Notes: generated by a model from the sequence alone, not told the origin. DNA of 64,000 nucleotides from Solirubrobacteraceae bacterium (GCA_017882375.1 JADGPP010000003.1:9961-73960), one strand, 5' to 3'. Shown: positions 14,503-61,823, numbered from the stretch's first letter. Numbers and translations are program-made.

Positions 14503-14587
14503 CGCTCGCGCGGCGAGCTACACGGCTTGGCTCCTGCGCGTCGAGCGGCGGTAGGGCGCGGGGGGTGTGATGTTGCTTTTGGAGCGC

Positions 14588-14683
14588 GCGATAGCAAAGG
14601 TATATACGTTGTAGATACCATGGTGCACCGACTCTGCAAGTGGACATACAAGTCCTCCGCGGTGTAAATACCATCGCTATCGC
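14588..14683. repeat. REP/REPIN-like element copy A
   Basis: GCGATAGCAAAGGTATATAC (14588-14607), GTT, GTAGATACCATGG (14611-14623), and a second right arm GTAAATACCATCGCTATCGC (14664-14683). Confidence 0.8.
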
Positions 14684-14685
14684 TA

Positions 14686-14810
14686 TCTCCCACGCCCATC
14701 TCCCATCTCCCATCTCCCATCTCCAACGCCCATCTTCCATCTCCCACGACCGTCTCCCACGACCGTCTCCCACGTCCAACGCCCACGTCAAACGCCCATC
14801 GTCCATCCCT
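14686..14810 (+). repeat. C-rich low-complexity tract of CCCATCT and CTCCCACGAC units
   Basis: Tandem CCCATCT heptamers around 14695-14745, then CGTCTCCCACGAC-like repeats. Confidence 0.8.
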
Positions 14811-14834
14811 ATACCGCCAGGAGGCTCACACCTG

Positions 14835-15116
14835 ATGCCCGCCGCAGACGACGAAGTCGATCCAACGAAAGGGCTGTCGCTCGATCCAGATCAGTTTCAC
14901 GAGCAGCAGGCCCGGCGCGAGAAGATCCTCTCCATGCAGGACGCCATTCGCCCCGGCCGCACGACCCCCATCGCCATCCGCTTCGACCAGTTCACGCTCG
15001 AGCGGCTGAAGGCGCTCGCCGCGCTGCACAACACCGGCTACCAGACGCTGCTCAAGGAGTTCGTCGTCGAGCGCCTCTACGAGGAGGAGAAGCGCGCCGG
15101 AATCATCGATCGATGA
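14835..15116 (+). CDS. CopG/BrnA-like ribbon-helix-helix antitoxin (orphan)
   Basis: PIAIRFDQFTLERLKALAALHNTGYQTLLKEFV matches the RHH ...GYQTL pattern; AGGAGG ribosome-binding site upstream of ATG 14835. Confidence 0.75.
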   Translation: MPAADDEVDPTKGLSLDPDQFHEQQARREKILSMQDAIRPGRTTPIAIRFDQFTLERLKALAALHNTGYQTLLKEFVVERLYEEEKRAGIIDR

Positions 15117-15930
15117 GCGTGCTCACGACCGCCTCGTAGACGCCCGCGCCGTGGCCGGCCTCGGCGACCCGCACGTTGTCGTGCGCAGCCGCCGCCTCGG
15201 CGATCGACGGGTCGCGCTCGACGGCATTTGCGACCAGCCAGAACGTCTGCACGTGCTCGGCGCACGCCAGGTCCTCGCGCGAGTCGCCCACCGCGAACGT
15301 CTCCCCGCGTGAATATCCACGCGCGCGGCTGTGGAAAGCGACCGCCGCCGCCTTCGACGCGCTGATCGGCAGCAGGTGGTAGCCGCGCACGTGCGGCAGC
15401 TCGGCCAGCGCCGGCGAGCGGCGGTTGACGACGCCGTTGTCGACCAGGCGCAGGTTGCCGTGACCGCGCTCGGCGAGCAACGCGTCGGCCTCGAACGCAT
15501 CCACCAGCCCGCGGAACAGGTGCGAGACCTCGCGCTGCACGTGCCACGGCTCGTGGTACTCCAGACGGCCGGCGTAATGCTCCAGCAGCAGATCCGGCGC
15601 ACCCGAGCGCTCGATCTGCTCGGCGATCGTCAGCTCGCCCGGCTGCAGGTCGCCCGTCAGCCAGTTCTCCTCGCCGTCGAGCACCACGCACGCCCCCGCC
15701 TCGTAGATGAACGACGCCTGACCGAGCAGGCGCGCGTCCTCGTACACCTGCGCACGCCGGCGGCCCGACATCAGCACGACCTCCACGTCCGCGCGCAGGC
15801 ACGCCTGCACCGCGCGCACGCCGTCGATCGAAACCGCCCCATCGCCGTCGTGCAGCAGCGACGCGCCGCGGCCGAGCAGCGTGCCGTCGAGGTCGACGTA
15901 CAGGCAGCGCACCCGAGCGCCGGCGCTCAC
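15103..15930 (-). CDS. HAD-IIB (Cof-like) phosphatase, candidate glucosyl/mannosyl-3-phosphoglycerate phosphatase
   Basis: YVDLDGTLL, MSGR, SKAAAV, VGDSREDL; GTG start overlaps the gpgS stop. Confidence 0.82.
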   Translation of the reverse strand: MSAGARVRCLYVDLDGTLLGRGASLLHDGDGAVSIDGVRAVQACLRADVEVVLMSGRRRAQVYEDARLLGQASFIYEAGACVVLDGEENWLTGDLQPGELTIAEQIERSGAPDLLLEHYAGRLEYHEPWHVQREVSHLFRGLVDAFEADALLAERGHGNLRLVDNGVVNRRSPALAELPHVRGYHLLPISASKAAAVAFHSRARGYSRGETFAVGDSREDLACAEHVQTFWLVANAVERDPSIAEAAAAHDNVRVAEAGHGAGVYEAVVSTLIDR

Positions 15931-16937
15931 GCGCGGCTCCCCCGCCGCTCGCCCAGGGTCGCGGCCGCGTGCCCCGGTCTGGCGCCGTCGCTCACGGCGC
16001 TCTCCGAGAGCCCCGCCAGGCTCGCCAGCGGCGGGCGCTCCGGCGGAGCGAGTGCCGCCGCCGCGCCGTCCGGCGTCAGGCGGCCCTCCTGCTCCAGGCG
16101 CCGCGCGATCGTCGCCAGCACCGTCAGCGCCATCGGCGACAGCGCCGACAGCGTCTGGTGGCGGTTGTGGTGCTGCTCGAGGTCGACCTGTGCGATCCCC
16201 TCGATGCCGACCGTTCGCCACGCGTCGATCAGCATCGCGATCTCCACGCCGTAGCCCGTCGCAAACGGCAGGCGCTCCAGCAGCTCCCTGCGCGCCGCCA
16301 CCTCGCCCGCCAGCGGCTGGCGGATCTGCGCGAGCTGCGGATAGAACAGCGCCAGCGCCGGTCGCGCCATCAGGTGGTTCACGCGGCCGCCTTCCTCGGC
16401 TGGGTCCGCGTCGTGGCCTTGCGCGCCGCCGGTCAACGGCCGCCGGTAGAAGGCCTTGACGAACGACACGTCCGGCTCGCACAGCAGCGGGCCCAGCAGG
16501 CCCGTCGCGAAGTGCGCCGAGAAGCGCTCGCTGTCGGCGTCCACGAAGCACACCACGTCGCTCTCCAGCCTCGACAGCGTGCGCCACATCGCATCGCCCT
16601 TGCCCAGCACCGGCCCGAACGACGGCAGCAGATCGTCCTCTTGCCAGACCTCCGCCCCCGCCTGCGCCGCCAACTCGGCCGTGCCGTCCGGCGAGGCTGC
16701 GTCGATGACCACGATCCGATCGAGCGCGCCCGCCTCGCGCAGGGCGCCCAGCGCGCCGACGATCTCCCCCACCGTGCCCGCGCATTCGCGCGCCGGCAGG
16801 CACACCGACACGCTCAGCCCGCGCTGCGCGCGCGCCGCCACGATCCGCTCGGGCGTGTACGCCGAGTGGCAAAACGTCCGCGCTTTCGCCCGGTCGTTGC
16901 TCGCATCGTCTCCTACGCTCGCGCCGGCTGCGGCCAT
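15927..16937 (-). CDS. gpgS: Glucosyl-3-phosphoglycerate synthase (GT81)
   Basis: SVCLPAREC, GKGDAMWR, FVDAD, VKAFYRRP, GGRVNHL, QPLAGEVA, GYGVEIAML. Confidence 0.85.
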   Translation of the reverse strand: MAAAGASVGDDASNDRAKARTFCHSAYTPERIVAARAQRGLSVSVCLPARECAGTVGEIVGALGALREAGALDRIVVIDAASPDGTAELAAQAGAEVWQEDDLLPSFGPVLGKGDAMWRTLSRLESDVVCFVDADSERFSAHFATGLLGPLLCEPDVSFVKAFYRRPLTGGAQGHDADPAEEGGRVNHLMARPALALFYPQLAQIRQPLAGEVAARRELLERLPFATGYGVEIAMLIDAWRTVGIEGIAQVDLEQHHNRHQTLSALSPMALTVLATIARRLEQEGRLTPDGAAAALAPPERPPLASLAGLSESAVSDGARPGHAAATLGERRGSRA

Positions 16938-16957
16938 CGCCTCTACTATCGCAACCC

Positions 16958-19420
16958 ATGGCCAAAGACCGCCAGACCGAGCCGTGGAGCGCGCTGCTCG
17001 ACGCCGGGCGCGCCGACGGACGGCTCGTCCGCGAGGCCCACGAAGGCCCCGGCAAGCCCAAGCTCGTCGATCCGCCGCCCGAGCTGCATCCCGACGTGCT
17101 CGGCGCGCTCGATCGCCTCGGCATCCAGCAGCTGTACTCGCACCAGGCCGACGCCGTCTACGCCGCCGCCGACGGCCCGACGATCGTCACCACCGGCACC
17201 GCCTCAGGCAAGTCCATGTGCTTCAACCTGCCCACCCTGCACGTCCTCTGCCAGCAGGCGCGCGCGCGGGCGCTGTACCTCTATCCGACCAAGGCACTCG
17301 CCCAGGACCAGGCGCGCGCGCTCGCCGACTTCGGCCTATCAAAGCGCGTGCGCCCGGCGATCTACGACGGCGACACCCCGCGCGAGGCGCGCGCCGAGAT
17401 CCGCAAGAACGCCAACGTCGTGCTCACCAACCCCGACATGCTGCACGTCGGCATCCTGCCCAACCACGGCGCCTGGCACGACCTGTTCGCCAACCTCGCC
17501 GTCGTCGTCATCGACGAGGCCCACGTCTACCGCGGCGTGTTCGGCTCCCACGTCGCCAACGTGCTGCGCCGCCTGCGCCGCATCGCCGCCGCCTACGGCA
17601 CCGAGCCACGCTTCCTGCTCACCTCCGCCACCATCGCCAACCCCGTCGAGCTCGCGCAGCGGCTCACCGGCCTGCACGACGTCGCCCTGATCGACGACGA
17701 CGGCTCCCCCGAGCCCGAGCGGCGCATCGCCGTGTGGAACCCGCCGCTCACCGACGAGACCGTCGGCGCGCGCCGCTCCGCGCTCGGCGAGGCCGCCGAG
17801 CTGCTCGCGCGCCTCGTCCGCGAGGACGCGCGCACGATCTGCTTCATCAAGTCGCGCAAGGCCGTCGAGCTGCTCAGTCGCCTGGTCAAAGACGACCTCT
17901 CCCAGACCCACCCCGAGCTCGCCGAGCTCGTCGTCCCCTACCGCGCCGGCTACACCCCCCAGCAGCGCCGCGAGCTCGAGGGCCGGCTGATGCGCGGCGA
18001 GTTGCGCGCCGTCATCACCACCGACGCGCTCGAGCTCGGCATCGACATCGGCGCGCTTGACGCCGCCGTCGTCGTCACCTTCCCCGGCACCGTCGCCTCG
18101 CTGCGCCAGATGTGGGGGCGCGCCGGGCGCTCCACCATCGAGCGACGCGGGCGCGGGCTGGCGCTGTACATCGCCGGCGAGGACGCCCTCGACCAGTTCT
18201 TCTGCCGCCATCCCGAAGACTTCCTGCAGCGCCCCGTCGAGGCCGCCATCCTCGACCACGAGAGCCCGCTCATCTTCCGCCAGCACCTGCTCTGCTCGGC
18301 GCACGAGGGCCCGCTGTCGCGCGCGGACGCCGAGTTCCTCGGACCGCGCTGGGAGGCCCACGCCGAGGTTCTGCTCAGCGCCGGCGAGCTGCGACGCAGA
18401 CCGCGTGACGCCAGCGCGCACGCCGACCCCATAGATCAAACCGGCCGAGCAGCCGAGCACGGCTCTGAATCGGGCACCTACGTTCCCCGCCGCCACGGCT
18501 CCTATCCCGCCGGCGACGTCTCGCTGCGCTCCGCCTCGCCCGAGCGCTACGACATCATCGATGTGTCCTCCGGCGAGCTGCTCGGCTCCACCGAGGCCGC
18601 GCGCGCGCACTCCACCGTGCACCAGGGCGCCATCTACCTGCATCTCGGCGAGACCTACGAGGTGCGCGAGCTCGACCTCGATCGCCACCGCGCGCTCGTC
18701 GCGCCCTTCTCCGGCGACTGGTACACCCAGCCCAAGCGCGCCACCGACACCGACATCGTGCGCCTGCTCGACCGCCGCCAGGCGCTCGGCGTGACGCTCT
18801 CCTTCGGCGAGGTCAGCGTCACCGACACCGTCCTCGCCTACCAGCGCAAGGGCGTCTCCGACCATGCCTTCCGCGAGCTCGTCCCGCTCGACCTGCCGCC
18901 CGCCAGCTTCCCCACCCAGGCGCTGTGGTTCGAGCTCGACTCCGGTCAGCTCGAAGACGAGATCCCGCTCGAGGTGCTGCTCGGCGCGCTGCACGCCACC
19001 GAGCATGCACAGATCGCCGTGCTGCCGCTCATCGCCATGTGCGACCGCTGGGACATCGGCGGCCTGTCCACCAACTATCACCCGCAGACCGGCGCCCCCA
19101 CCATCTTCATCTACGACGGGCACCCCGGCGGCATCGGCATCGCCCGCACCGCCTTCGCGCGCTTTGACGAGCTCTGCCGCGACGCCCACGCGCTCGTCTC
19201 CGAGTGCCCCTGCTCCAGCGGCTGTCCCTCCTGCGTGCAGTCGCCCAAGTGCGGCAACCTCAACGAGCCCCTCTCCAAGACCGGCGCGCGCGTGTTGCTC
19301 GCGCGCATGCTCGCCGCCGGCGAGCTGGCCGGCGAACAGGCCGGCGAACAGGGGCCTATCGCAGCCCAACGTGTGAGCGCGCGCCGCTCCGAACGCGGCG
19401 CCTCGTTGTTGAAGGCATAG
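16958..19420 (+). CDS. SF2 DEAH-box helicase with C-terminal DUF1998/MZB domain (SftH/YprA/Hrq1 family)
   Basis: TGTASGKS, YPTKALAQDQ, IDEAH, TSAT, YRAGY, ALELGIDIG, QMWGRAGR, YDGHPGGIG, CPCSSGCPSCVQSPKCG. Confidence 0.93.
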   Translation: MAKDRQTEPWSALLDAGRADGRLVREAHEGPGKPKLVDPPPELHPDVLGALDRLGIQQLYSHQADAVYAAADGPTIVTTGTASGKSMCFNLPTLHVLCQQARARALYLYPTKALAQDQARALADFGLSKRVRPAIYDGDTPREARAEIRKNANVVLTNPDMLHVGILPNHGAWHDLFANLAVVVIDEAHVYRGVFGSHVANVLRRLRRIAAAYGTEPRFLLTSATIANPVELAQRLTGLHDVALIDDDGSPEPERRIAVWNPPLTDETVGARRSALGEAAELLARLVREDARTICFIKSRKAVELLSRLVKDDLSQTHPELAELVVPYRAGYTPQQRRELEGRLMRGELRAVITTDALELGIDIGALDAAVVVTFPGTVASLRQMWGRAGRSTIERRGRGLALYIAGEDALDQFFCRHPEDFLQRPVEAAILDHESPLIFRQHLLCSAHEGPLSRADAEFLGPRWEAHAEVLLSAGELRRRPRDASAHADPIDQTGRAAEHGSESGTYVPRRHGSYPAGDVSLRSASPERYDIIDVSSGELLGSTEAARAHSTVHQGAIYLHLGETYEVRELDLDRHRALVAPFSGDWYTQPKRATDTDIVRLLDRRQALGVTLSFGEVSVTDTVLAYQRKGVSDHAFRELVPLDLPPASFPTQALWFELDSGQLEDEIPLEVLLGALHATEHAQIAVLPLIAMCDRWDIGGLSTNYHPQTGAPTIFIYDGHPGGIGIARTAFARFDELCRDAHALVSECPCSSGCPSCVQSPKCGNLNEPLSKTGARVLLARMLAAGELAGEQAGEQGPIAAQRVSARRSERGASLLKA

Positions 19421-19422
19421 TC

Positions 19423-21303: not shown

Positions 21304-21359
21304 GGCAGGCCAGCTCAGGGTCCGGGCGCAGGGTGGGTTGCTCTTTTTGTGTGCAGCGA

Positions 21360-21394
21360 TAGCAATGGTATCTACGGCGTATATACCATCGCTA
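21360..21394. repeat. REP/REPIN-like element copy B (hairpin doublet between convergent genes)
   Basis: TAGCAATGGTATCTAC, GGC, GTATATACCATCGCTA; 14 of 16 arm positions complementary. Confidence 0.85.
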
Positions 21395-21411
21395 CCGGTG
21401 TGTGCAATCCG

Positions 21412-23757
21412 TCAACCGCCTCTCACCGCCGCAGCCGCGATCGCCGCCTGGCCGTAGGAGATCGCCCCGTCGTTCGGCGGCAGGCGCTCCGCGACGAGCG
21501 CGCGCAGTCCCGCTGACTCGACGCGCGCGGCCACGCCCTCGAGCAGCAGGCGGTTCTGAAACACGCCGCCGCCGAGCACGACCAGCGACACGCCGTGCGC
21601 TCGCGCGATCTGCAGGCAAGCGCGCGCCGTCGCCGTCGCCAGCGTGCTGTGAAAGCGCGCCGAGATCGTCTCGCGCGCCGCGCCCGCCGCGACGTCCGCC
21701 GCTACCGCCGCGATCGTCGGGCGCGCATCGAGCTGGTCGTCCTCGAAGGGCATCTCATAGCTCCCGCGCTCGTGTGGGTCGGCCAGCGCCTCGAGCTCGA
21801 CCGCCGCCTGGCCCTCGTAGGAGACGCGCTCGCCGGCGCCGCAGATCGCCGCCACCGCGTCGCACAGTCGCCCCACGCTCGTCGTGATCGGCGAGGCGAC
21901 GCCCTCGCCGGCGATCCTCGCCACGGCCGCCCAGCGCTCGGGGTCGACGATGCCCGCGAGCGACGGCGGGACCGGCGGCAGGGGGTCGCCGGTCGTCTCG
22001 GCGATCCACTCGCAGGCCATCCGCCACGGCTCGCGCGCCGCGCTGTCGCCGCCCGGCAGGCGCACCGGACGCAGGTGCCCGGCGCGCACGAAGCCCTGCA
22101 GGTCGCCCAGCAGCAGCTCGCCGCCCCACACCGTCTCGTCGCTGCCGTAGCCCGCGCCGTCGTAGATCGCGCCCACCGCCGGGCCGCGCTCGCCGTGCTC
22201 GGCCAGCACCGCCGCGAGGTGCGCATGATGGTGCTGCACCGCCAGCAGCGCCGGCTCCCCGTCCTGCAGCTCGCGCTCCAGCGCGTAGGACGTCGACAGG
22301 TAATCCGGATGCAGATCGTGCGCGACCAGCCGCGGGCTCACCGCGAACAGCCGCTGGAAGTGCGCGATCCCCTCGCGGAAGGAGCGCAGCGTCTCCCAGT
22401 TGCCCAGATCGCCGATGTGGTGACCGACCCACGCCCGCGCGCCACGCACCAGGCAGAACGTGCTCTTCAGCTCCGCGCCGCACGCCAACAGGTCTCGCTC
22501 CGCGACGACCGGCAGCGCGATGCTCGCCGGGACGTAGCCGCGTGAGCGCCGCAGCATCTGCGCGCGACGGCGCGCGCCCACGCTCACGACCCGCGCCAGC
22601 GAGTCGTCGGTGCGCATGTGCACCGGGCGGTCGTGCAGCAGGAAGGCGTCGGCGATCGACTTCAGGCGCATGATCGCGTCATCGTCCTCGTAGGCGATCG
22701 GCTCGTCGCAGACGTTGCCGCTGGTCATCACCAGCGCCTCGATCCCCAGCTCGTGCGCGTCCGCCAGCAGCAGGTGGTGAAGCGGCGTGTACGCGAGCAT
22801 CACGCCGAGCTCGCGCGCGCCCGGGGCGACGGCCTCAGCCGCCGCCGCATCCGCTCGCCGCGGCGCGAGCACGATCGGGCGCGCAGGCGAGCGCAGCAGC
22901 GCGATCTCCTCCTCGGCGAACATCGCCAGCCCCGTTGCCGCGTGCACGTCGGCGACCATCAGCGCGAACGGCCGGTCCTCGCGTCGCTTGCGCGTGCGCA
23001 GCGCAGCCACCGGCGCGTGCTCGTCGGCGCGGCACGCCAGGTGGTAGCCGCCCAGTCCCTTGATCGCGACGATCGCGCCCGCCGCGATCAGCTCCGCCGC
23101 GCCGGCCACAGCATCGGCGACGTGCGTCGCGTCGCGCATGATCAGGTGCGGCGCATCGCCCTCGGCGCCCAGCAGGCGCGCCTGCGGACCGCATTGCGGG
23201 CAGGCGTTCGGCTGGGCGTGAAAGCGCCGGTCGAGCGGGTTGTCGTACTCGGCGCGACACGCCGCGCACATCGCAAACCCGGCCATCGTCGTCAGCGGCC
23301 TGTCGTAGGGCACGCCGCGCACGATCGTAAAGCGCGGCCCGCAGTTGGTGCAGTTGATGAACGGGTAGCGAAAGCGACGGTCGCGCTGATCGGTCAGCTC
23401 GGCCAGGCAGTCGGCGCACGTCGCCGTGTCAGGCGCCACGAGCGCCTCGGCGTGGCGGCGCGGAGCCGCGCTCGGGGCGATCTGAAAGCTGCGCTCGCCG
23501 CGCACGTCCAGCGGCTGCCACGACACGTCCTCGACGCGCGCCAGCGGCGGCGCCTGCTCGCGCACGCGCAGCAGGAACGCGTCCACGGCGTCGCGCGCGC
23601 CCTCGATCTCCAGCTCGACGCCGCGCTCGTCGTTGCGCACCCACCCACCGAGCGCCAGCTCCTGGGCCAGCCGGAAGACGAACGGGCGAAAGCCCACGCC
23701 CTGCACCGTGCCGCCGACGCGCACGCGCATCCTGCAGATCCCCGCCGTCGCGGCCAT
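21412..23757 (-). CDS. hypF: Carbamoyltransferase HypF
   Basis: GTVQGVGFRPF acylphosphatase domain, CADC/CTNC/CAAC/CPQC zinc fingers, KGLGGYHL, HHHAH, PPNDGAISYGQA. Confidence 0.96.
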   Translation of the reverse strand: MAATAGICRMRVRVGGTVQGVGFRPFVFRLAQELALGGWVRNDERGVELEIEGARDAVDAFLLRVREQAPPLARVEDVSWQPLDVRGERSFQIAPSAAPRRHAEALVAPDTATCADCLAELTDQRDRRFRYPFINCTNCGPRFTIVRGVPYDRPLTTMAGFAMCAACRAEYDNPLDRRFHAQPNACPQCGPQARLLGAEGDAPHLIMRDATHVADAVAGAAELIAAGAIVAIKGLGGYHLACRADEHAPVAALRTRKRREDRPFALMVADVHAATGLAMFAEEEIALLRSPARPIVLAPRRADAAAAEAVAPGARELGVMLAYTPLHHLLLADAHELGIEALVMTSGNVCDEPIAYEDDDAIMRLKSIADAFLLHDRPVHMRTDDSLARVVSVGARRRAQMLRRSRGYVPASIALPVVAERDLLACGAELKSTFCLVRGARAWVGHHIGDLGNWETLRSFREGIAHFQRLFAVSPRLVAHDLHPDYLSTSYALERELQDGEPALLAVQHHHAHLAAVLAEHGERGPAVGAIYDGAGYGSDETVWGGELLLGDLQGFVRAGHLRPVRLPGGDSAAREPWRMACEWIAETTGDPLPPVPPSLAGIVDPERWAAVARIAGEGVASPITTSVGRLCDAVAAICGAGERVSYEGQAAVELEALADPHERGSYEMPFEDDQLDARPTIAAVAADVAAGAARETISARFHSTLATATARACLQIARAHGVSLVVLGGGVFQNRLLLEGVAARVESAGLRALVAERLPPNDGAISYGQAAIAAAAVRGG

Positions 23758-23784
23758 CGGCTCACTCCCGCCCGGGTCGCTCGA

Positions 23785-24498: not shown

Positions 24499-24522
24499 CG
24501 CTACACCGCCGACCGATCGGCT

Positions 24523-30191: not shown

Positions 30192-30246
30192 CCGTTCTCC
30201 TTTGACTCAATGCTCGTGCGGAGGGGGTGTTCCTCTCTATGCGCAC

Positions 30247-30270
30247 TGCGTATAACCATGGTTATACGCA
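30247..30270. repeat. Perfect 24-bp palindrome (compact REP-like copy C)
   Basis: TGCGTATAACCATGGTTATACGCA is its own reverse complement and shares the GTA..ACCATGG core. Confidence 0.85.
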
Positions 30271-30285
30271 CTCTCTGGAGAGAGA

Positions 30286-30378
30286 GAGACCCTACCCGCC
30301 GAGGCGCCAAGGCCCGACCGTCACGAGACCCTACCCGCCGAGGCGCCAGAGCCCGACCGGCACGGAGACCCTACCCGC
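30286..30378 (+). repeat. Tandem repeat, 39-40 bp period, ~2.3 copies, overlapping the stop of the hydrolase gene
   Basis: GAGACCCTACCCGC units start at 30286, 30325 and 30365. Confidence 0.85.
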
Positions 30379-35723: not shown

Positions 35724-36052
35724 GCGACTGAGAGGGCGGGCTCCAGCTCCTGCTCGAGCTTCTTCTTGGGGTAGGCACCGATCACGGTCTTGACCGGCTG
35801 GCCGCCTTTGAAGAGGATCATCGTGGGGATCGAGAGCACCTGGAAGGCGGCGGCCGTCTGCTGGTTCTCGTCGGTGTTGAGCTTGACGATGCGCAGGTCG
35901 GGACGCTCGGCGGCGATCTCCTCGAGCACTGGAGCGACGACACGGCAAGGGCCGCACCACGGCGCCCAGAAGTCGACGAGCACGGGCTTGTCGGACTCGA
36001 TGACCTCAGCCTGGAAGTTGCTGTCGGTGACTTCGCTCAAAGTGCCTGCCAT
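35720..36052 (-). CDS. trxA: Thioredoxin
   Basis: DFWAPWCGPC, SIPTMILFKGG. Confidence 0.96.
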   Translation of the reverse strand: MAGTLSEVTDSNFQAEVIESDKPVLVDFWAPWCGPCRVVAPVLEEIAAERPDLRIVKLNTDENQQTAAAFQVLSIPTMILFKGGQPVKTVIGAYPKKKLEQELEPALSVA

Positions 36053-36151
36053 GGGTTCTCCCTTTGGATCGCTTTCCCACCACTATACAAAGTGAAGGAA
36101 GGGGGTCCGGAGGAGGGTGCGGAGGAGGGTGTGTACTCGCGCACGGACTGC

Positions 36152-36400
36152 GCGGTAGCCATCGTATATACGGCGTATAGACCATCGCGCACGCTCGATG
36201 TAAGAGCAGTCAGCGTCCCCAGCCGCCGTAGATACCATGGCTATCCGGCGACGCACGTGCGATCACCGCCTCCGCCCCGCGTAAATACCATGGCTATCGG
36301 GCGGTGCAACGCACTCACCCCCTGGCCCCTCGTAAATACCATGGCTATCGGGCGGCGCAAACGCGCTCACAGCCTGCCCCGTGAATCCCGATGGCTATCG
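36152..36400. repeat. REP/REPIN-like element copy D: hairpin doublet plus four tandem ~50-bp units
   Basis: GCGGTAGCCATCGTATATAC, GGC, GTATAGACCATCG (36152-36187); GTA[G/A]ATACCATGGCTATC units at 36228, 36281, 36332 and a degenerate unit at 36381. Confidence 0.85.
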
Positions 36401-36439
36401 AAGCGACGCAACCGAGACGCCCCACCGCCAGGCGAGCCG

Positions 36440-50226: not shown

Positions 50227-50237
50227 CGCTGCTCAGC

Positions 50238-52246: not shown

Positions 52247-52289
52247 CACACCGATCCACGTCCCCATCAACAACGAACGGAGACCACCG

Positions 52290-52934: not shown

Positions 52935-52998
52935 CGCGCCGAGCGCTGGACGTGAGGCGGTGCCGCGCCGTGCGCGGCGCCGCCTCTACGCTTCGCCG

Positions 52999-54327
52999 GT
53001 GCGCCACCGCCCCAGCATCCTCGCCCGCGCCCACTTCACGTGGCCCGCGCGCGGCGCCGGTCTCCCCGCCGTCCTCGCCGCCTTGTCGCTCGCCGCATGC
53101 GGCTCCTCCGGCAGCGGCTCCAGCGCCTCGAGCAAGACCGCGAAGTCGACCGCCACGGGCTCGGCCTCGGCCGAGACGCCGGCGCTGTGCACCGCCGTCG
53201 GGGCGGCGACGCTCGGCGAAGTCGGCCAACGCATCTACCGCCAGGCCGCCGCCGGCCGCGGCGTCGCAGAGGCCGTCGGCCGCGTCACGCGCTCACCCGC
53301 ACTCGCCTCGGCGATCTCCTCCGGCGACGCCGCCGCGACTCGCACGGCGCTGAACGGCCTGCTGGCAAACCAGATCGCCCGTATCGACATCGTCAAACGC
53401 GGCCGCGTCTTCGCCAGCGCCGGAACGGGTCCGGCGATCGCTCCCGTGCGCGGCGCCATCGCCGGCACCGACGCGAGCTTCGTGCTCTCCGTGCAGGCCG
53501 ACGACAGCTACCTCAAAGTCGCGCGGCAGGTGACCGGCGCGGAGATCCTGCTGCTCTCCGGTCCCACATCCGGCTCCCCCGGCGCCCGCCGGCTCGCCGG
53601 AACGATCGCCGGACCGCAACCCGCACGAATACCCACGCGCGGCACGCTCGAATATAAAAAGAGGAAGTACGCGACGTTCTCCCTCGCAGGCTCGGTCTAT
53701 CCCTCGGGATCGCTGCGCATCGTCCTGCTCGTCCCGCACAGCGCCATCCGCTGCGCCGGCTCTGCCGCGCAGACGCACGTCGCGACCCTCGGCCACGTCG
53801 GCGAACTGATCTACCAGGAGGAGGCCGGCAGCCCCTACGTGCAAGCAACGCTGCGCCACATCGAAGCCGATCCAGGCTTTCAGCGCGCTGTCGCCACGCG
53901 CGACCTCGCCGCCACGCGCGCCGCAATCGTCGGCTTCTTCGCCGCGCACATCCACGTCGTGCGCGTGCGCGTGTACGTCTCGCAGCCCAGCGGCGCCCAG
54001 CGCTTCTTCTACGACCTCGGCGGCCCCTACGTGCTCGCCCCCGTGCACGGCACGCTGCGCAGCGCCGGCAAGGTAGTCGCGCACTTCTCCTTCGCCATCC
54101 AGGACGACGCCGGCTACATGAAGCTCGCGCACCGCTTCACCGGTGCCGACGTGCTCATGCGCACCGGCGCAAAGCAGGTCATCGGCACGCTCGACCCCGG
54201 CCCCGCGAGCGTCCCCGACCGCGGGACCGTGTCCTACCGCGCCAGCGACTACCAGGCCTACTCCTTCATCGGCGAAGCCTTCCCCTCCGGCCCGCTGCGC
54301 ATCTCACTGCTCGTCGCCCAGCGCTGA
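52999..54327 (+). CDS. Putative lipoprotein with two copies of an unnamed repeat domain; paralog of 27809-28864
   Basis: LSLAA-C-GSS lipobox; internal duplication (GQRIY...YPSGSLRIVLL and GELIY...FPSGPLRISLL); GTG 6 nt after TACGCT. Confidence 0.75.
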   Translation: MRHRPSILARAHFTWPARGAGLPAVLAALSLAACGSSGSGSSASSKTAKSTATGSASAETPALCTAVGAATLGEVGQRIYRQAAAGRGVAEAVGRVTRSPALASAISSGDAAATRTALNGLLANQIARIDIVKRGRVFASAGTGPAIAPVRGAIAGTDASFVLSVQADDSYLKVARQVTGAEILLLSGPTSGSPGARRLAGTIAGPQPARIPTRGTLEYKKRKYATFSLAGSVYPSGSLRIVLLVPHSAIRCAGSAAQTHVATLGHVGELIYQEEAGSPYVQATLRHIEADPGFQRAVATRDLAATRAAIVGFFAAHIHVVRVRVYVSQPSGAQRFFYDLGGPYVLAPVHGTLRSAGKVVAHFSFAIQDDAGYMKLAHRFTGADVLMRTGAKQVIGTLDPGPASVPDRGTVSYRASDYQAYSFIGEAFPSGPLRISLLVAQR

Positions 54328-54333
54328 GGCCGG

Positions 54334-56109: not shown

Positions 56110-56203
56110 ATCTCCTACATCGGCAGCGATGCGGCGCCGCTTGACTGCGTGTTCTCGGGGGTGCCCAGGGGGGCTCACGCCAGCCAAGCAAATCGCGACT
56201 TCG

Positions 56204-56905
56204 CTAGGGAGTGTCGCCTGTCGGCCTGTCGACCAGACATAGTCCGTTGAGCTGCAGCCAGTGGCGCTCGCGGTCATCGTCGCGACCTTGGTAGGCGCGA
56301 GCGAGCCCAAGCATGAGGAACGCCCCCACGCCGCGTCTGAGCCGCAACCTGACGCTCTGCACGACCCGATCCCTGATCGTCTTCTGGTCCTCTGCGTAGA
56401 AACGTATGTCCGTCACCGAGACATACGCCTGAGGATCGACGTCATCGATCTTGAGCCGCAGCTTTCCGTAGCGGTCGACTTCGAGCTCGGGGCGTTTGCG
56501 CGCTCGGACGACCGCCAGCGAGCGGTCTCCGCACCCTCGTTCGACGGCGTAGTTCCAGCGCAAGCGTTCGAGCGCGGGGCCGAAAGCGCTCGAGATATCC
56601 GGTGAGCTGACCATTTCGAGCAGCGCCAAGAACTCGTCACCATCCATGTCCTCGACGAGGCGAGCACATGCGGTCCTGAACCTGTGGTCCTCGGTCTCCG
56701 GCGGCGTGGGGGCCGGCTGAGTCGCTCCGAGCTCGACCACCGCTCCCATCCTGAACGGCCCACCCTCCTCGCGCAGTAGATCCCGCGTGATCGGATCGCT
56801 GGCAGGCGTCGTCGGCCGCACATGCTCGAACGACTCGATGTCCACGCCCGCGACGCAAATACGCGGCGCACCCATCCTCGTGACGTGGTTGGCGACGATC
56901 CGCAT
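56204..56905 (-). CDS. Dual-OB-domain-like hypothetical protein
   Basis: N-terminal VTRM...ICVAGVD motif, SVTDIRF, LGLARAY...WLQLNGL; third gene of the DUF488 cassette; family assignment from recall. Confidence 0.6.
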   Translation of the reverse strand: MRIVANHVTRMGAPRICVAGVDIESFEHVRPTTPASDPITRDLLREEGGPFRMGAVVELGATQPAPTPPETEDHRFRTACARLVEDMDGDEFLALLEMVSSPDISSAFGPALERLRWNYAVERGCGDRSLAVVRARKRPELEVDRYGKLRLKIDDVDPQAYVSVTDIRFYAEDQKTIRDRVVQSVRLRLRRGVGAFLMLGLARAYQGRDDDRERHWLQLNGLCLVDRPTGDTP

Positions 56906-56908
56906 CGC

Positions 56909-57346
56909 TCACAAATGCACGGGATGTACATCGGGCCATCGGCCAGCCAGGTACTCGCAGACCAAGCGCCGATGGCAGTGCTCAGCCGTGGCCTCACTGC
57001 ACAGGAGAGCGGTGGGCGTACGAAAGTCAGAGATCGAGAGTCTGCTCTCGATCTCGCGACTCGCCATCAACTCGAGGAACTGCGCTTCGTAGGCCGACCA
57101 GTCCCCTTTGCGCTTCTTGTACTCGTCGAGCAGCCCTTGCGTTGGAGCGAGCAGTGGCTCGTGTTCGTAGGTGGCCCCGATCAGCTCCTGCAGGAAGTAC
57201 GGGAGGTCCTTGGCCTTGGCGAAGCCGGCCAATTGCGACGTGTTATTCAGGCGCACATCGAGCAGCCGCGTGACACCTGCATCAGCTAGGCGCTTGAAGA
57301 AACGCTCAGCCGTCGTCTGTGTGAAACCGATTGAGTAGATCTCCAC
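56909..57346 (-). CDS. DUF488 family protein
   Basis: IYSIGFT, LLDVRL..SQLAGFAK, LLCSE..AEHCHRRLV. Confidence 0.88.
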   Translation of the reverse strand: MEIYSIGFTQTTAERFFKRLADAGVTRLLDVRLNNTSQLAGFAKAKDLPYFLQELIGATYEHEPLLAPTQGLLDEYKKRKGDWSAYEAQFLELMASREIESRLSISDFRTPTALLCSEATAEHCHRRLVCEYLAGRWPDVHPVHL

Positions 57347-57879
57347 GGTGTCTGCTCATCCTCCAAGAGTGTGCATTGTGCATCGTCGGACAGCGCCACG
57401 GAACGCTCCGTGCGAATAGTCCCATCTGGAAGAATATGCCGAAGTTCGACTCCTCGGTCGGTTAGGACCTTTCCAACCAGCAGCCGCCGGTGGCAGTGCT
57501 GCGGGTCTCCCTCGCTGCAGAGCAGTGCGATCCGGTGGCGCCGTGCACCGGCAATGAGGCGCTCTATCGCAGCCTCGAAAGCCTTCTCTTCGGACATCGG
57601 GCCGTAGAGGGCGTGGCCGTCCGCGTCGTAGTGCTCGTCTCGCGTCGGACGGCCTCCGAGCTCCTCTCCGAGGAACAGATAGCCCACGCCCCGCCGAGCC
57701 ATCGCGGCCTCGAGCTCATCCCGATTGAAATGTGGCGCGAAGCGCGAGTAGGGGAACGACCGCACATCTACGAGGAACTCGATCTGCCCACTTGAAACGA
57801 GCTGCGCAAAGTCATCGAACTCGTGGTTGGAGTGGCCGACCGTCCAGATAGCAAGACGCGAAGACATCGTTCTCGTCAT
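57286..57879 (-). CDS. DUF488 family protein
   Basis: WTVGHSNH, LVDVRSFPYSRFAPHFN, LGEELGGRP, LLCSEGDPQHCHRRLL; 3' end overlaps the next gene by 61 nt. Confidence 0.88.
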   Translation of the reverse strand: MTRTMSSRLAIWTVGHSNHEFDDFAQLVSSGQIEFLVDVRSFPYSRFAPHFNRDELEAAMARRGVGYLFLGEELGGRPTRDEHYDADGHALYGPMSEEKAFEAAIERLIAGARRHRIALLCSEGDPQHCHRRLLVGKVLTDRGVELRHILPDGTIRTERSVALSDDAQCTLLEDEQTPWRSTQSVSHRRRLSVSSSA

Positions 57880-57888
57880 GGTAAGGCC

Positions 57889-58809
57889 CTAGAGCCCACC
57901 CTCAAAGGCCCCCTTGACCTGCGCGTCGAGTGCGTTCAGGCGATACAGCGCCAGCGCCTCGGCCGAGGCCAAGCGCTGGCCGGAGGCCGCCTCCGCGCCG
58001 TGGTGCAGCAGCACGCAGTGCTCGAGCGCCAGGCGGCGCTCGCCCTCCAAGATCGTCGGCATGTGGCCTGCGAGCACGCGCATTCCCAGCTCGATGTGCC
58101 CCAGCAGGCGTCCTTCTGGGCTGCGCGCGATCTCCGCGCCGTAGGTGAACTCGCGCGTCTTGCCGATGTCGTGCACGATCGCCGCGCTCAGCAGCATGTC
58201 GCGATCCAGGCGCGGGTGCAGCGTGCACAGCTCCAGCGCCAGCGTCGCCACGGCCACCGTGTGCTCCAGCAAGCCGCCGAGGTACGCGTGGTGGACCCCC
58301 GGGCGCGGGCGCGGGCGACTAGACGGCGCCGAGCACGGTGCGACGCGCAGCTGCGCGCGAAGCTCGCCGTCGCCCAGCATGTTCGCCAGCAACAGCTTCA
58401 GCGGCGCGTCGAACACCTCGCGCGCGAGGTGTTCGAGGAAGCCCTCCAGCTCGTCCAGGTCGCGGTAGGCCGTCGGCAGAAACCGCGCCGGGTCGGCCTG
58501 CTCGCCCTCGGCGCGCGCGATCGACTGAACGGCGATCTGCAGCGCGTCGCGGAAGCGCTCGGCACGCCCCTGCACGCGCACGAGCTCGCCGCGCTCGAAG
58601 CGCCCCGCGAGCACGTCGGCGTCGCGAAAGGCCCGCCCGAGGATCGTGCCCGTGCTGTCCGACAGCTCGATGTTCAGATACGGCGTCCCCGCGCGCGAGA
58701 TCTGGCGCTCCTTGCGCGTGCACGCGAACACGCCGTCGACCTCCTGCTGGTCGCGCAGAGTCGCGATGCTCTGGGCGATCTCGCTCGGCGGAGTCGTGGC
58801 GGAAGCCAT
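57889..58809 (-). CDS. OB-fold plus HD-domain protein (YhaM/Cbf1-like 3'-5' exoribonuclease)
   Basis: YLNIELSDSTGTI OB domain, HHAYLGGLLEHT, HDIGK, GRLLGHI, HHG. Confidence 0.85.
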   Translation of the reverse strand: MASATTPPSEIAQSIATLRDQQEVDGVFACTRKERQISRAGTPYLNIELSDSTGTILGRAFRDADVLAGRFERGELVRVQGRAERFRDALQIAVQSIARAEGEQADPARFLPTAYRDLDELEGFLEHLAREVFDAPLKLLLANMLGDGELRAQLRVAPCSAPSSRPRPRPGVHHAYLGGLLEHTVAVATLALELCTLHPRLDRDMLLSAAIVHDIGKTREFTYGAEIARSPEGRLLGHIELGMRVLAGHMPTILEGERRLALEHCVLLHHGAEAASGQRLASAEALALYRLNALDAQVKGAFEGGL

Positions 58810-58834
58810 CGGCCCATGATGTACGGTGGTTCGG

Positions 58835-59707
58835 ATGCAGCCGCTCATCTGGGATCGCCGTCCGGACGGCCTGAGGGCCCCCGCGATGGTCTGCGCGTTT
58901 CAAGGCTGGAACGACGCCGGAGACGCCGCCTCCAGCGCCGTCTCCTTCCTCGCCTCCTCGCTCGACGCGCGCCGCTTCGCGCGCATCGACTCCGAGGAGT
59001 TCTACGACTTCCAGGCCAACCGGCCCAGCGTGCAGTTCAACGACGACAACGAGCGCGAGATCGTCTGGCCGACCGTCGAGGTCTTCGAGGCCTCCGCGCC
59101 GCGCGCGCCGCGCGACCTCGTGCTCGTGCAGGGCGTCGAGCCCTCGCTGCGCTGGCGCGCATTCAGCGCGCACATCGTCGACCTCGCCGAAGCGCTCGGC
59201 GTGCAGGTCGTCGTCTCACTCGGCGCGCTGCTCGGCGACGTGCCCCACACGCGGCCCGTCGCCATGTCCGGGCACGCCTCAGACCCCTCGCTGATGGAGC
59301 GCCTGGGCATGCAGGGCTCGACCTATGAGGGGCCGACCGGCATCGTCGGCGTGTTGCACAACGCCTGCGTGCAGGCCGGCCTGCCGTCGGCGAGCCTGTG
59401 GGCGGGCGTACCGCACTACGTCGCCGCCGCCGCCAACCCCAAGGCCGCGCTCGCGCTCGTGCGCCGCGTCGAAGGCCTGATCGGCGTGTCCGTCGACGTC
59501 TCCGAGCTGGAGTCCGCCGCCGCCGACTACGAGCGTCAGGTCGGACTGGCCGTGCAGAGCGACCCCGAGATCCAGGCGTTCGTCGAACGCCTCGAGCAGG
59601 CCGCCGAAAGCGACGAGGAGGTCTCCACCGACGACGTTCCCTCCGGCGACATGCTCGCGCGCGAATTCCAGCGCTTCCTGCGCCAGCGCGGACACGAGAG
59701 CAAGTAG
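58835..59707 (+). CDS. PAC2-family (proteasome assembly chaperone-like) protein
   Basis: AFQGWNDAGDAAS, EEFYDFQANRP, EPSLRW, GDVPHTRP, YEGPTGIVG, VPHYV, FQRFLRQ. Confidence 0.9.
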   Translation: MQPLIWDRRPDGLRAPAMVCAFQGWNDAGDAASSAVSFLASSLDARRFARIDSEEFYDFQANRPSVQFNDDNEREIVWPTVEVFEASAPRAPRDLVLVQGVEPSLRWRAFSAHIVDLAEALGVQVVVSLGALLGDVPHTRPVAMSGHASDPSLMERLGMQGSTYEGPTGIVGVLHNACVQAGLPSASLWAGVPHYVAAAANPKAALALVRRVEGLIGVSVDVSELESAAADYERQVGLAVQSDPEIQAFVERLEQAAESDEEVSTDDVPSGDMLAREFQRFLRQRGHESK

Positions 59708-59771
59708 CGCCGGCGCGCTACGCCTTCGCCGTGGCCCGGGCACGCGACGAATCGCGGCCGAAGCCGAGCGG

Positions 59772-61511
59772 CTACTTCTCGGCGACCGGGCAGACGATCC
59801 GGTAGTCGCAGATCGAGCACGCCGCGTGCGAGGGCGTCGGCTCGAACTCCTGCGCGAGGATGCCCTCGCCGACCTCCATCACGATGTCCGTCACCGACGC
59901 CGCGTCCTGCTCGCCGCGCGGCACCGGAACCTTCACGTCGTCGAGCACGTAGTAGTAGGCCTGGTGTGAGGACTCCAGGCCCCACGCCTCACGCGCCGCC
60001 AGCGCGTACAGCGAGAGCTGCACGTCGTCCTTCAGCTGCTCGGCCGTCTTCGCGCGCGAGGTCTTGTAGTCGATCAGCTCGTATTCCTCGCCCCCGTCCG
60101 CGCCGATCACGCGGTCGACGCGGTCGACGCGCCCGCGCAGGTGGTGCGGTCCGAGGCGGAAGGAGAAGGAGCGCTCGAACCACACGGGCTCTGAGTCCTG
60201 TCCGTGCAGGCGCCCGTGGTAGCGCGTCAGCGCCGTCGTGGCCAGCCCGCGCAGTTCGTTCTCGCGCTGGGAGTCGCCGAAGCCCGCTTTGCGCCAGCCC
60301 GAGTCCAGCAGCTCCAGCAGCTGCGAGAGCGTCTCGCCGCCGTCTGAGTGGAAGCGCTCGAGCACCGTGTGCACGGCGATGCCGAAGCGCTGGTGCAGCG
60401 TCTGCTCGGTCGGGATGCGCAGGACGCGCGCGAACTTGTAGCGCAGCGGACAGCTGCGATAGGTCTCGATGTCCGACGCCGACAGCGCCAGGCCGACGCC
60501 CTTGCGCGGCAGGAATGGCCCCAGCGAGTGCTCGTCGCGCTTGCCGATCGGCTCGCCGATCTTCGATCGCTCCTCGCCGTCGCCCGCGAGCGTCTCGTCG
60601 AGCGTCGAGGTCTGCAGGATCTCGCGCTGCGTCGGCGTCGTCGCCGACAGCAGACGCGCGTTTATGTCCGCCAGCGCCTCGGCGATGTCCTGGCCCGCCG
60701 GGCGCTGCAGCAGCGCGGCCAGCTTGAGCAGCTCCAGGTAGCGCACCACGCCGTGGGAGATGTCCAGTTCGGTGTCCAGGCGCAGCTCGCCCAGGCGCCC
60801 GCCGATGCGCCCGACGCTCTCCAGCACCTCTTCGCGCATCAGCTGGAAGGTCGCCTCCAGCCGGTCGTCCGGCGACGGCCGATCCTCCGGCGTGTCTCCG
60901 ACCAACGGCGCGGCCGGCGCGGGCGCCGGGTCTTCGGCGGCGCCACCCGCGGCGCGCATCACCGGCGCGGCGGTCGCCAGGTGGCGGGCCAGCTCGCGCG
61001 GGGTCGCCCCCGGCTGCGCACGCACGAACTCGGCGGCGAGATCGCGCAGCCCCTGCAGGCTCGCCTGCTGCTCAGCGGCGTCCTCGGGCGCCAGCAGCGC
61101 ACGGCCGGGCGCGCCGAGCAACTCGATCAGCTCGACCACGAACGCGTCCGGCGCCCGCCCCTCCAACGCACCGGCGGCGCTGCGATGCAGCGCCGCGAAG
61201 CGCGCGATTCGTTCGCGCGCCTCCGGCGGGACCTGCGGGGACTCCGTCGCCGCCGTCAACCCCGCGACCAGATCGAGCTTGCGCCGGCGTGCGACCTGGA
61301 TCACGCGCGCGAGGTGAGCCTGGCGCAACTCGATCGGCGGGCGCGCGAGCGCCCGCACGACCGCCGCCGCATCCTGCGGATCGACCAGCAGGCGCACCCA
61401 CGCCAGCACGTCGCGCACCTCCGCCCGGCGCAGGAACGCCACGTCGCGCGGCGCGCCGCCACCGATCGTCTCGGCGGCAGGCTCGGTCGCGGTGCGAAAG
61501 GCGGGCACCAT
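59772..61511 (-). CDS. UvrD/PcrA 2B-like domain fused to an Fe-S PD-(D/E)XK (AddB/AdnA/RecB-type) nuclease, no helicase motor
   Basis: FLRRAEVRDVLAWVRLL..D..A..RAL (2B-like); LSASDIETYRSCPLRY, GRVDRVD, IDYKT, QLSLYALA, CSICDYRIVC; no Walker A/B. Confidence 0.8.
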   Translation of the reverse strand: MVPAFRTATEPAAETIGGGAPRDVAFLRRAEVRDVLAWVRLLVDPQDAAAVVRALARPPIELRQAHLARVIQVARRRKLDLVAGLTAATESPQVPPEARERIARFAALHRSAAGALEGRAPDAFVVELIELLGAPGRALLAPEDAAEQQASLQGLRDLAAEFVRAQPGATPRELARHLATAAPVMRAAGGAAEDPAPAPAAPLVGDTPEDRPSPDDRLEATFQLMREEVLESVGRIGGRLGELRLDTELDISHGVVRYLELLKLAALLQRPAGQDIAEALADINARLLSATTPTQREILQTSTLDETLAGDGEERSKIGEPIGKRDEHSLGPFLPRKGVGLALSASDIETYRSCPLRYKFARVLRIPTEQTLHQRFGIAVHTVLERFHSDGGETLSQLLELLDSGWRKAGFGDSQRENELRGLATTALTRYHGRLHGQDSEPVWFERSFSFRLGPHHLRGRVDRVDRVIGADGGEEYELIDYKTSRAKTAEQLKDDVQLSLYALAAREAWGLESSHQAYYYVLDDVKVPVPRGEQDAASVTDIVMEVGEGILAQEFEPTPSHAACSICDYRIVCPVAEK

Positions 61512-61636
61512 CCAAGGATACGAGCGTGCGGGGAGACGCGACAGTGCGCGGCGCGGGACGCAGCTCGGGGCCGACTGTGGGTCGGCTCTGGGTCGGCTCG
61601 GGGCCGGCCTCGGGTCCGCTCGGGGCCGGAGGCGGC

Positions 61637-61823
61637 GGGGGTGTGGAGGTCCTTTTGCACGCAGCGTGCGCGGTGGTATCTACAACAAGCGCGGCTAACG
61701 AGGCTTTGTGTGTGCTTTTGCGTGGAGCGTTCGCGTTCGTATATACAGGCTGGCCGATCCTGCGACGTCCGTAAATACCATGGCGCACGCTGCGTGCAAA
61801 TGGAGGAAGGACCTCCCCGCCCC
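61637..61823. mobile_element. MITE-like element with ~47-53-bp imperfect terminal inverted repeats ending in the REP-like core (copy E)
   Basis: TTTGCACGCAGCGTGCGC (61654-61671) perfectly complements 61783-61800; GGAGGTCCTT (61645-61654) complements 61807-61816; inner ends TGGTATCTAC and GTAAATACCA. Confidence 0.6.

Follow-up and report, generated by a model that had tools for sequence, protein, structure and literature searches.

What is the short sequence that recurs between genes in a stretch of 64,000 nucleotides from a Solirubrobacteraceae bacterium (GCA_017882375.1, JADGPP010000003.1:9961-73960; hereafter the window)? An earlier note on this DNA had described a core of about 20 nucleotides at five intergenic loci, here called A to E, and had read it as a family of repetitive extragenic palindromic (REP) sequences, with inverted doublets (REPINs) of the kind moved by a REP-associated tyrosine transposase (RAYT). 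Following up this reading computationally, we conclude with a probability of about 0.68 that the loci belong to a lineage-restricted, non-autonomous and modular interspersed repeat family, part of which has been amplified inside a MITE (miniature inverted-repeat transposable element) of the IS982 type. The family is a new interspersed repeat resembling BOX sequences, bacterial interspersed mosaic elements (BIMEs) and MITEs, and is neither a REPIN family nor an operator regulon.

The window corresponds to C53:9961-73960 of a 3.57-Mb assembly (G000; 69% GC, 172 contigs), a fragmented metagenome-assembled genome (MAG) of 95.9% completeness from which an insertion sequence (IS) could have escaped assembly; because of this fragmentation, copy counts in G000 are lower bounds. 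A search with the core pattern GTADATACCATSGCTATCG, GTA[A/G/T]ATACCAT[G/C]GCTATCG, allowing up to three mismatches returned nine matches in the window (14589(-), 14664(+), 21357(-), 21379(+), 36153(-), 36228(+), 36281(+), 36332(+) and 61771(+)) compared to 0.01 expected from 100 dinucleotide-preserving shuffles. All nine are intergenic, which bears out the claim of a dispersed intergenic core. Across the whole of G000, the same pattern yields 14, 56, 105 and 117 matches at 0, 1, 2 and 3 mismatches, a position weight matrix yields 147 (0 in the reversed genome), and a loose regular expression yields 132 (4 in the reversed control). Merging these models gives 157 half-sites at 69 loci, which span 41-380 bp and contain no open reading frame (ORF), so the many genome-wide copies that had been anticipated do exist. 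TRF independently detects the tandem array at 36222-36412 (period 51, 3.7 copies). The window has no match in Rfam 15, and a search of seven module loci against Rfam returned RT-15 alone (E=0.14), whose 19 bits fall far below the gathering score, 82; this weak match overlaps the module at L006 18-237 (G000 C51:10017-10236) and is most likely due to chance.

When each copy was lined up with its outward flank, conservation was seen to run on beyond 19 bp, and the true unit is therefore about 53 bp long. Its 19-bp core is strongly conserved and the tail behind it only loosely so; the tail starts with some 7 nt, continues as a patch rich in A (AAAG/AAAC) and ends in a CACAC/C-rich stretch. Conservation is strongest in the core and decays outward. 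The core consensus is GTA[AGT]ATAC-N-AT-N-GC(TATCG or GCACG), its outer half taking two forms, GCTATCG (the commonest) and GCGCACG. Two units placed head to head with a 3-bp spacer form a doublet (41 bp of core), in which a copy in minus sense is followed 22 bp on by a copy in plus sense; any further copies are added at intervals of 52-55 bp, and always to the same side. A module consists of one inverted unit and one to five direct units, that is, a doublet with zero to four additional tandem units, and the spacings of 22 and ~53 bp are stereotyped across the 69 loci. As in modular mosaics of the BOX and BIME type, loci hold one to five units at these fixed spacings and orthologous loci vary in unit number. 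A CRISPR array was considered and rejected: the 34-bp "spacers" are mutually related within and between loci and are the unit tails (cas genes were not searched for).

The architecture that had been proposed for loci A, B and D, namely an inverted left arm, a spacer (GTT, GGC and GGC, respectively) and a right arm, was confirmed in the raw sequence, and a G-rich GGG-TG stretch was found on the left of all five loci. Three points needed amendment. The core is present at A, B, D and E, but locus C has no match to it and carries instead an 18-bp palindrome, GTATAACCATGGTTATAC, of a related subfamily. The G-rich leader and the C-rich right flank are likewise both present, but they are one feature, the tail of the ~53-bp unit read in opposite directions. 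The arms of locus E stand 87 bp apart rather than 3, with a leader on both sides.

Does the doublet behave as a REPIN, that is, are its units REP hairpins moved by RAYT, a Y1 HUH transposase? Across 43 non-redundant doublets from G000 and other genomes, positions G1, T2, A3, T6, A7, C8, T11, G13, C14 and C18 of the core are invariant, and positions 4, 9 and 12 vary freely, with C, G or T at position 9 and G, T or C at position 12. The two arms are systematically different: 37 of the 43 doublets pair one GTATATAC arm (T-type) with one GTA[AG]ATAC arm (R-type), and identity between arms at position 4 is 0.12 as opposed to 0.38 in shuffled pairings, an anti-correlation; the corresponding values are 0.33 and 0.37 at position 9, and 0.33 and 0.41 at position 12. 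We found no compensatory covariation between the arms of these doublets. Since the free variation at positions 9 and 12 breaks the CCATGG pseudo-palindrome, there is no conserved unit hairpin. Folded as RNA, locus B is stable (z-scores of -3.0 and -4.7 for its two strands), but the z-scores of A (-0.5) and D (+0.9) are not significant. A six-frame search for Y1_Tnp (PF01797) gave no match in G000 or in any of the eight other genomes carrying the family (three of them complete chromosomes), with six control genomes positive. The family is independent of RAYT. It shares with REPIN populations the GTA[AGT] head, the inverted doublets, an intergenic location biased to gene 3' ends, long persistence at orthologous sites and lineage-specific variants. 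The head demanded of a REP is thus present in the unit, the conserved hairpin is not, and, without Y1_Tnp, unit hairpin or arm covariation, the family fails the tests that define REP/REPIN systems; we regard the REP/REPIN reading of the earlier note as highly improbable.

Carriers of the family are confined to a single group of related species, uncultured soil actinobacteria of the Solirubrobacteraceae (Actinomycetota, class Thermoleophilia). At up to one mismatch, the core occurs 107 times in G000 and is absent from 24 other congeneric species (genus as defined by GTDB), a distribution that upholds the proposal of a lineage-specific, non-autonomous family; 16 genomes from other families of the order gave a single chance match. 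When one genome per prokaryote species was scanned for exact matches, more than 100 stretches came back. Every multi-copy, high-GC match among them was a Solirubrobacteraceae or Solirubrobacterales MAG, the remainder being single matches in low-GC genomes, and the foreign loci that we fetched repeat the 22/53-bp architecture and the type of tail. The eight other carriers studied here (G042-G049) show 80-89% DNA identity to the window across syntenic genes and hold 80, 70, 43, 42, 28, 28, 9 and 8 cores (controls, 0), so that copy number spans 8-107, or about 13-fold, across nine related genomes. G049 and G048 have recurrent core variants of their own, GTATATGC and GTACATAC. The enzyme responsible for mobilisation had been placed outside the window, and indeed none is encoded within it. 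Viral contigs yield single chance matches in low-GC contigs and the MITE has no match among PLSDB plasmids, and we rejected phages and plasmids as sources. A replication-linked polarity was also rejected: all five modules of the window are co-oriented, but orientations are mixed, as judged by eye, along the complete chromosome of G042.

Comparison with these relatives reveals that modules have been inserted into and lost from intergenic DNA and that their unit number changes; empty orthologous sites, for which the earlier note had suggested searching, occur for loci B, C and D and for the module at C3:31698. The locus D segment is missing in G045, G047, G042, G049 and G048 (82-87% DNA identity), where the site consists of 15-55 bp of intergenic DNA running from the 5' region of trxA to the stop codon of the upstream gene. 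The insertion itself comprises ~330 bp of whole units with no terminal inverted repeat (TIR) and no clear target-site duplication. The adjoining 5' region of trxA (window 36052-36100, minus strand; CTTCACTTTGTATAGTGG ... AAAGGGAGAACCC ATG) is conserved in six species and likely contains the native -10 box (TATAGT) and ribosome binding site (RBS) of the lineage, with the module inserted just upstream. Locus C is present in G045 and G047, and the intergenic region is only 18-19 bp long in G042 and G048. At C3:31698, there are four units in G000, three in G047, and two each in G042 and G049; the site is empty in G048 (25 bp of intergenic DNA) and holds unrelated sequence in G045.

Modules are also shared between species. 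Locus A has the same module in the same orientation at the orthologous site in G045 (L056), and the doublet of locus B lies 3' of the GH2 gene in G000, G047, G042, G049 and G048, even without the neighbouring hypF, with 31-36 of 38 arm bases identical between orthologous copies and flanks that cannot be aligned; this site is empty in G045 and in the more distant G015. The hypF stretch (window 21412-23757 and neighbours) is present in G047 and missing at GH2 in G045, G042, G049 and G048, and a second hypF-like copy, 51% identical, lies on contig C33 of G000. By tblastx of module flanks, ~17 G000 loci have an occupied orthologous site, among only ~55 foreign loci sampled, and modules can therefore persist across speciation. 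The locus B copies of G049 and G048 bear the core variant of their own genome. Genome-specific variants at loci shared since ancient times indicate concerted evolution, which could operate via gene conversion, hot-spot turnover or co-evolution with a binding protein. Elsewhere, the doublet at C3:25269-25309 (L162 12770-12810) sits exactly where G000 lacks 3-11 kb found in five relatives between the same two neighbours, and may mark the junction of a deletion or rearrangement.

Where do modules lie with respect to genes, and could this point to a function in transcription? The classifiable loci of G000 comprise 12 between convergent, 15 between tandem and 2 between divergent genes, compared to 19%, 60% and 21% of background intergenic regions (binomial tests, p=0.004 for the convergent excess and p=0.036 for the divergent deficit). 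Foreign loci divide into 8 convergent, 8 tandem and 1 divergent, for a pooled tally of 20, 23 and 3 among 46 classified loci; of the window's loci, A and B fall between convergent genes, C and D between tandem genes and E between divergent ones. Modules at tandem loci are co-oriented with transcription in 10 of 11 cases in G000 and in 3 of 8 in the other genomes. The flanking genes are functionally unrelated (gpsA, GH2, hypF, lyase, trxA, nuclease, purL/purQ, rlmN and malic enzyme).

These locations weigh against operator arrays of a host transcription factor, that is, a regulon whose sites the MITE copies merely spread. Few of the classified loci are divergent and many lie between convergent 3' ends, and no regulator gene recurs beside the modules. 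Moreover, locus D is a recent insertion upstream of a trxA promoter and RBS that were already complete and conserved, loci D and C are missing upstream of the same genes in close relatives, and the swing in copy number among close relatives, with none in the rest of the genus, is hard to reconcile with a regulon. We therefore consider operators quite unlikely, in spite of a dimer-like core (the CCATGG pseudo-palindrome and the 8-bp palindrome GTATATAC), spacings of 22 and 53 bp that put sites on one face of the helix, cores kept at the orthologous A, B and C3:31698 loci while flanks decay, and the position of loci C, D and E upstream of genes.

Convergent gene ends would also be the natural place for a bidirectional transcription terminator or a stabiliser of mRNA 3' ends, as described for SPRITE or REP sequences. 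Enrichment there and near stop codons, the strong hairpin of locus B, and C-rich tails that exit the module on both strands all agree with such a main role, and U-tract terminators are scarce in high-GC actinobacteria. On the other hand, no hairpin with a T-run was called at loci A, B and D or in a MITE copy, the arms are systematically mismatched without compensatory change, and at A and D the folds do not surpass those of shuffled sequences; we judge this role unlikely. Equally, no promoter of the sigma-70 type was called at loci A, B and D or in a MITE copy. Two further ideas were rejected. A sigma-70 promoter reading into the doublet (TTTACR, 17 bp, TATATAC), spotted by eye, lacks the final T of the -10 box and was negative in the scanner, and the apparent co-orientation of tandem-locus modules with transcription in G000 did not recur in other genomes. 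An archaeal origin or TATA-box promoter finds no archaeal features to go with it, the genes being bacterial (polA, rlmN) and the relatives Solirubrobacteraceae.

Part of the family has been spread by transposition of another kind. Many copies in G000 have long flanks in common and many sit at contig ends. Alignment of 15 copies defines an element of 215-380 bp without an ORF, whose ends are a 17-bp TIR (GAGGCTTGATGCGGGTT ... AACCCGCATCAAGCCTC) mostly flanked by CTA ... TAG. There are at least 15 alignable copies and ~24 TIR-bearing element ends of this MITE subfamily in G000, with a median pairwise identity of 92%, and the ends are mostly preceded by CTA and followed by TAG, which fits a TA or CTAG duplication (with exceptions, e.g., on C116). 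Many contigs of the MAG end within MITE copies, and the repeat family is thus a cause of assembly breaks. In eight related genomes searched for the same TIR, an inverted pair lies ~975 bp apart in G048 and G049. This 975-bp IS has CTAG on both sides, encodes a 292-aa transposase of the IS982 family (NCBIfam NF033520, 139 bits against a cut-off of 130), and contains no 19-bp core motif. Its transposase was found only in G048 and G049, and not in the assemblies of G000, G043 and G044, which are the carriers with the most copies. G045, G046 and G047 have modules and no TIR match, and the module is therefore a separate entity, which became enclosed by IS982 ends and multiplied as a MITE in the lineages of G000, G043 and G044.

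Could all copies instead be IS982-derived MITEs, the TIR-less modules, including the five loci of the window, being decayed copies of elements moved by a transposase in trans? A search with one MITE copy using nhmmer produced a graded series from complete elements via degraded ends (C51, C3:11103, C132:15602) to core-only matches, a group that includes every locus of the window, all without TIRs. This gradation is what decay would produce; TIR-bearing genomes also have the highest copy numbers, and there are orthologous sites that hold a MITE-type module in one species and a TIR-less one in another. Locus D argues otherwise, as it is lineage-specific (absent at 86% DNA identity) and consists of whole units with no trace of a TIR. 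So do the 8-42 cores of G045, G046 and G047, all without a TIR match, the sharing of locus B by five species, several of which have no TIRs, and the absence of the core from the autonomous IS. Derivation of every copy from a MITE is, on balance, rather unlikely, and capture of an independent module by IS982 ends remains our preferred account.

Several further candidates for the source of mobility in G000 did not hold. For an autonomous IS, only two DDE_Tnp_1 matches came up there: C6:3859-4746, on a contig of 5 kb, is a lone IS982-like gene that has 33-37% identity with the cognate transposase, no shared TIR and no recognisable inverted ends, and C75:5165-5536 is a transposase fragment within a 724-aa open frame. 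No pair of core arms frames a full-length IS in G000, and the sole candidate for arms acting as TIRs, L108 (arms 1 kb apart), is a spurious match inside a gene. A small RNA was rejected as the basis of the palindrome in the MITE copy, as the fold of its 121 nt does not differ from that of shuffled sequences (z=0.07) and it has no Rfam match. At three orthologous MITE-type sites (C116:49475-49747/L125, C55:11206/L100 and C41:3810/L037), the module has opposite orientations and different TIR content between genomes, which implies hot-spot re-insertion or in-place inversion. The MITE copy at C156:19215-19510 (L002) lies 3' of a malic-enzyme gene, between two diverged copies of the last ~38 bp of that gene including its stop codon, and its array-side TIR is replaced by the duplicate of the gene end. 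Modules of the family as a whole are small, non-coding and multi-copy, with filled and empty orthologous sites, as expected of MITEs in the generic sense.

The core would be a recognition site for a DNA-binding protein and would not act as a hairpin, given that it is pseudo-palindromic, that its sites lie two and five helical turns apart (22 and 53 bp) and that conservation is centred on it. The pseudo-palindrome around CCATGG would suit a dimer, and the 18-bp subfamily would represent the perfectly symmetric form of the core. Slippage or unequal recombination probably accounts for the expansion and contraction of arrays. The host is probably little affected; possibly, RNA transcribed out of a module contains an imperfect hairpin and, after it, a C-rich, G-poor tail, which could favour termination between convergent genes.

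A number of observations count against an interspersed repeat amplified in part by IS982 ends. No mobilising or core-binding protein was found, and the cognate transposase is missing from the three MITE-richest genomes, G000, G043 and G044. Where MITE ends are lacking, copies show neither sharp termini nor a clear target-site duplication nor TIRs, and central conservation that decays outward is the opposite of a classical cut-and-paste element. The ~17 occupied orthologous sites with well-kept cores would also suit a host function. Beside the modules, no gene family recurs except large paralogous metabolic families, and the gene calls underlying the statistics on location are approximate: the caller, a crude one based on GC3, reached only 70% of the genome and is known to have erred at least once. 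A more speculative extension, which we hold to be doubtful though worth stating, is that the 19-bp core is the site of a vertically inherited protein, other than Y1/RAYT, that maintains and occasionally copies the TIR-less modules. Such a protein would explain the central conservation, the asymmetry of T-type and R-type arms, the genome-specific core variants at shared loci and the tandem repeats at module borders. If true, this would be a second REPIN-like partnership of host and repeat with a different mechanism.

The features of the five loci are collected in Table 1. A short tandem repeat of locus-specific sequence (periods 7-39 bp, 2-9 copies) adjoins nearly all modules, in the window at A, C, D and E, and elsewhere on C161, C129, C50, C4, C3:25269 and C166 of G000 and at L078, L043, L105 and L106. 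The one beside locus A has no counterpart next to the orthologous G045 module. Such repeats suggest that the module, or its mode of insertion, causes slippage or instability locally. The related subfamily to which locus C belongs has 12 copies in G000 and none in the control, with G-rich and C-rich tails of the same kind; its consensus is a near-perfect palindrome, GTATAACCATGG[C/T]TATAC, flanked by inverted CAGACTGC/GCAGTCTG, and looks like one symmetrised core.

Table 1 Repeat loci of the window and copies of the 18-bp palindrome subfamily in G000. Positions are those of the window unless a contig is given.
Feature	Position	Sense	Details
Locus A	14560-14682		convergent pair: gpsA-like (+), HAD hydrolase (-)
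A, G/T-rich tail	14560-14588
A, T-type arm	14589-14607	-	CGATAGCAAAGGTATATAC
A, R-type arm	14611-14629		GTAGATACCATGGTGCACC; preceded by spacer GTT
A, extra direct unit core	14664-14682		preceded by 34-bp unit tail
A, adjoining short tandem repeat	14685-14807		ATCTCCC, period 7/13, ~9 copies
Locus B	21330-21397		convergent pair: GH2 (+), hypF (-)
B, tail	21330-21356		AGGGTGGGTTGCTCTTTTTGTGTGCAG
B, arm	21357-21375	-	GTAGATAC type; spacer GGC
B, arm	21379-21397		GTATATAC type
Locus C	30220-30275		5' of fumarase/aspartase-type lyase gene (-), 3' of hydrolase gene (-)
C, G-rich tail	30220-30249
C, 18-bp palindrome	30250-30267		GTATAACCATGGTTATAC
C, tandem repeat after locus	30286-30378		39-bp x 2.3
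Locus D	36107-36439		~330 bp, units only; between trxA (-) and SpoIIM-like gene (-)
D, tail	36103-36131		with 12-bp x 2.4 repeat
D, T-type arm	36153-36171	-	spacer GGC
D, arm	36175-36193		GTATAGACCATCGCGCACG
D, direct unit cores	36228-36246, 36281-36299, 36332-36350
D, degenerate core	36381-36400
Locus E	61637-61823		divergent pair: PD-(D/E)XK nuclease (-), Zincin_2 peptidase (+)
E, adjoining tandem repeat	61563-61629		11-bp x 6
E, tail	61637-61664
E, arm	61665-61683		CGTGCGCGGTGGTATCTAC
E, third core-like copy	61728-61746	-	within 87-bp insert splitting doublet
E, arm	61771-61789		GTAAATACCATGGCGCACG
E, tail	61790-61823
18-bp subfamily, copies in G000	window 30250-30267; C1:34984; C48:2117 and 2482; C64:17095; C84:3809; C86:15203
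18-bp subfamily, more copies in G000	C110:7834; C132:21020; C136:33919; C158:1437; C161:11931

Interspersed repeats such as REP/BIME, BOX, Correia and ERIC (enterobacterial repetitive intergenic consensus) are well studied in proteobacteria and firmicutes; to our knowledge, they have hardly been studied in Thermoleophilia, a soil lineage that is abundant but for the most part uncultured. The family reported here offers a clear example of a repeat module captured and amplified between IS982 ends, and is usable as a marker at the strain and species level. It also raises the question of what binds a 19-bp core that is kept while its surroundings decay, in genomes without RAYT; a dedicated protein, if it exists, would widen the known ways in which bacteria keep repeat populations.

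Our literature searches returned no description of this family and nothing linking Solirubrobacter to repetitive elements; the nearest analogues are BrickBuilt, BOX and Correia elements, the latter two covered in a review (PMC10969869). BrickBuilt of Porphyromonas gingivalis is a minisatellite-containing MITE, always intergenic, with ~19 copies per genome (PMC4596501). Like the MITE copies described here, it has small inverted-repeat ends, "leader" and "tail" subunits and a variable internal tandem repeat, but its repeat is 23 nt long without spacers and its promoter activity has been shown (PMC4596501), whereas our family has a 53-bp repeat with a 19-bp core, no sigma-70-type promoter was called in it, and most copies are without MITE ends. 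Correia elements, which are MITEs of Neisseria, are also small, palindromic and intergenic and occur in opposite orientations at the same site between genomes, in-situ inversion having been reported for them (PMC10969869). They differ in having 26-bp TIRs, a TA target duplication, a site for integration host factor (IHF) and promoters; conservation in the present family is central, not terminal, and no promoter was detected.

The TIR GAGGCTTGATGCGGGTT of the MITE copies matches that of the 975-bp IS982-family IS, and flanking CTA...TAG is common, as in MITEs of that family; the interior, however, is the repeat module and not derived from the IS, and the loci of the window and most others have no TIRs. 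The REP/REPIN-RAYT systems of Pseudomonas and E. coli share the inverted doublets, intergenic location, vertical persistence, lineage variants and variable copy number, and differ by their RAYT gene, conserved unit hairpin and arm covariation, none of which is found here. BOX of Streptococcus pneumoniae and BIMEs of E. coli (REP clusters) are intergenic, non-coding and modular, reach tens to hundreds of copies and encode no transposase; BIME units alternate in orientation and bind host proteins. Our family likewise combines an end module with an internal tandem unit whose number varies. It has no sequence similarity to either and, unlike BIME/REP, no RAYT, and is set apart by its high-GC actinobacterial host, its 53-bp unit with a non-hairpin 19-bp core, and its fixed head-to-head doublet, in which a 3-bp spacer joins a T-type to an R-type arm.

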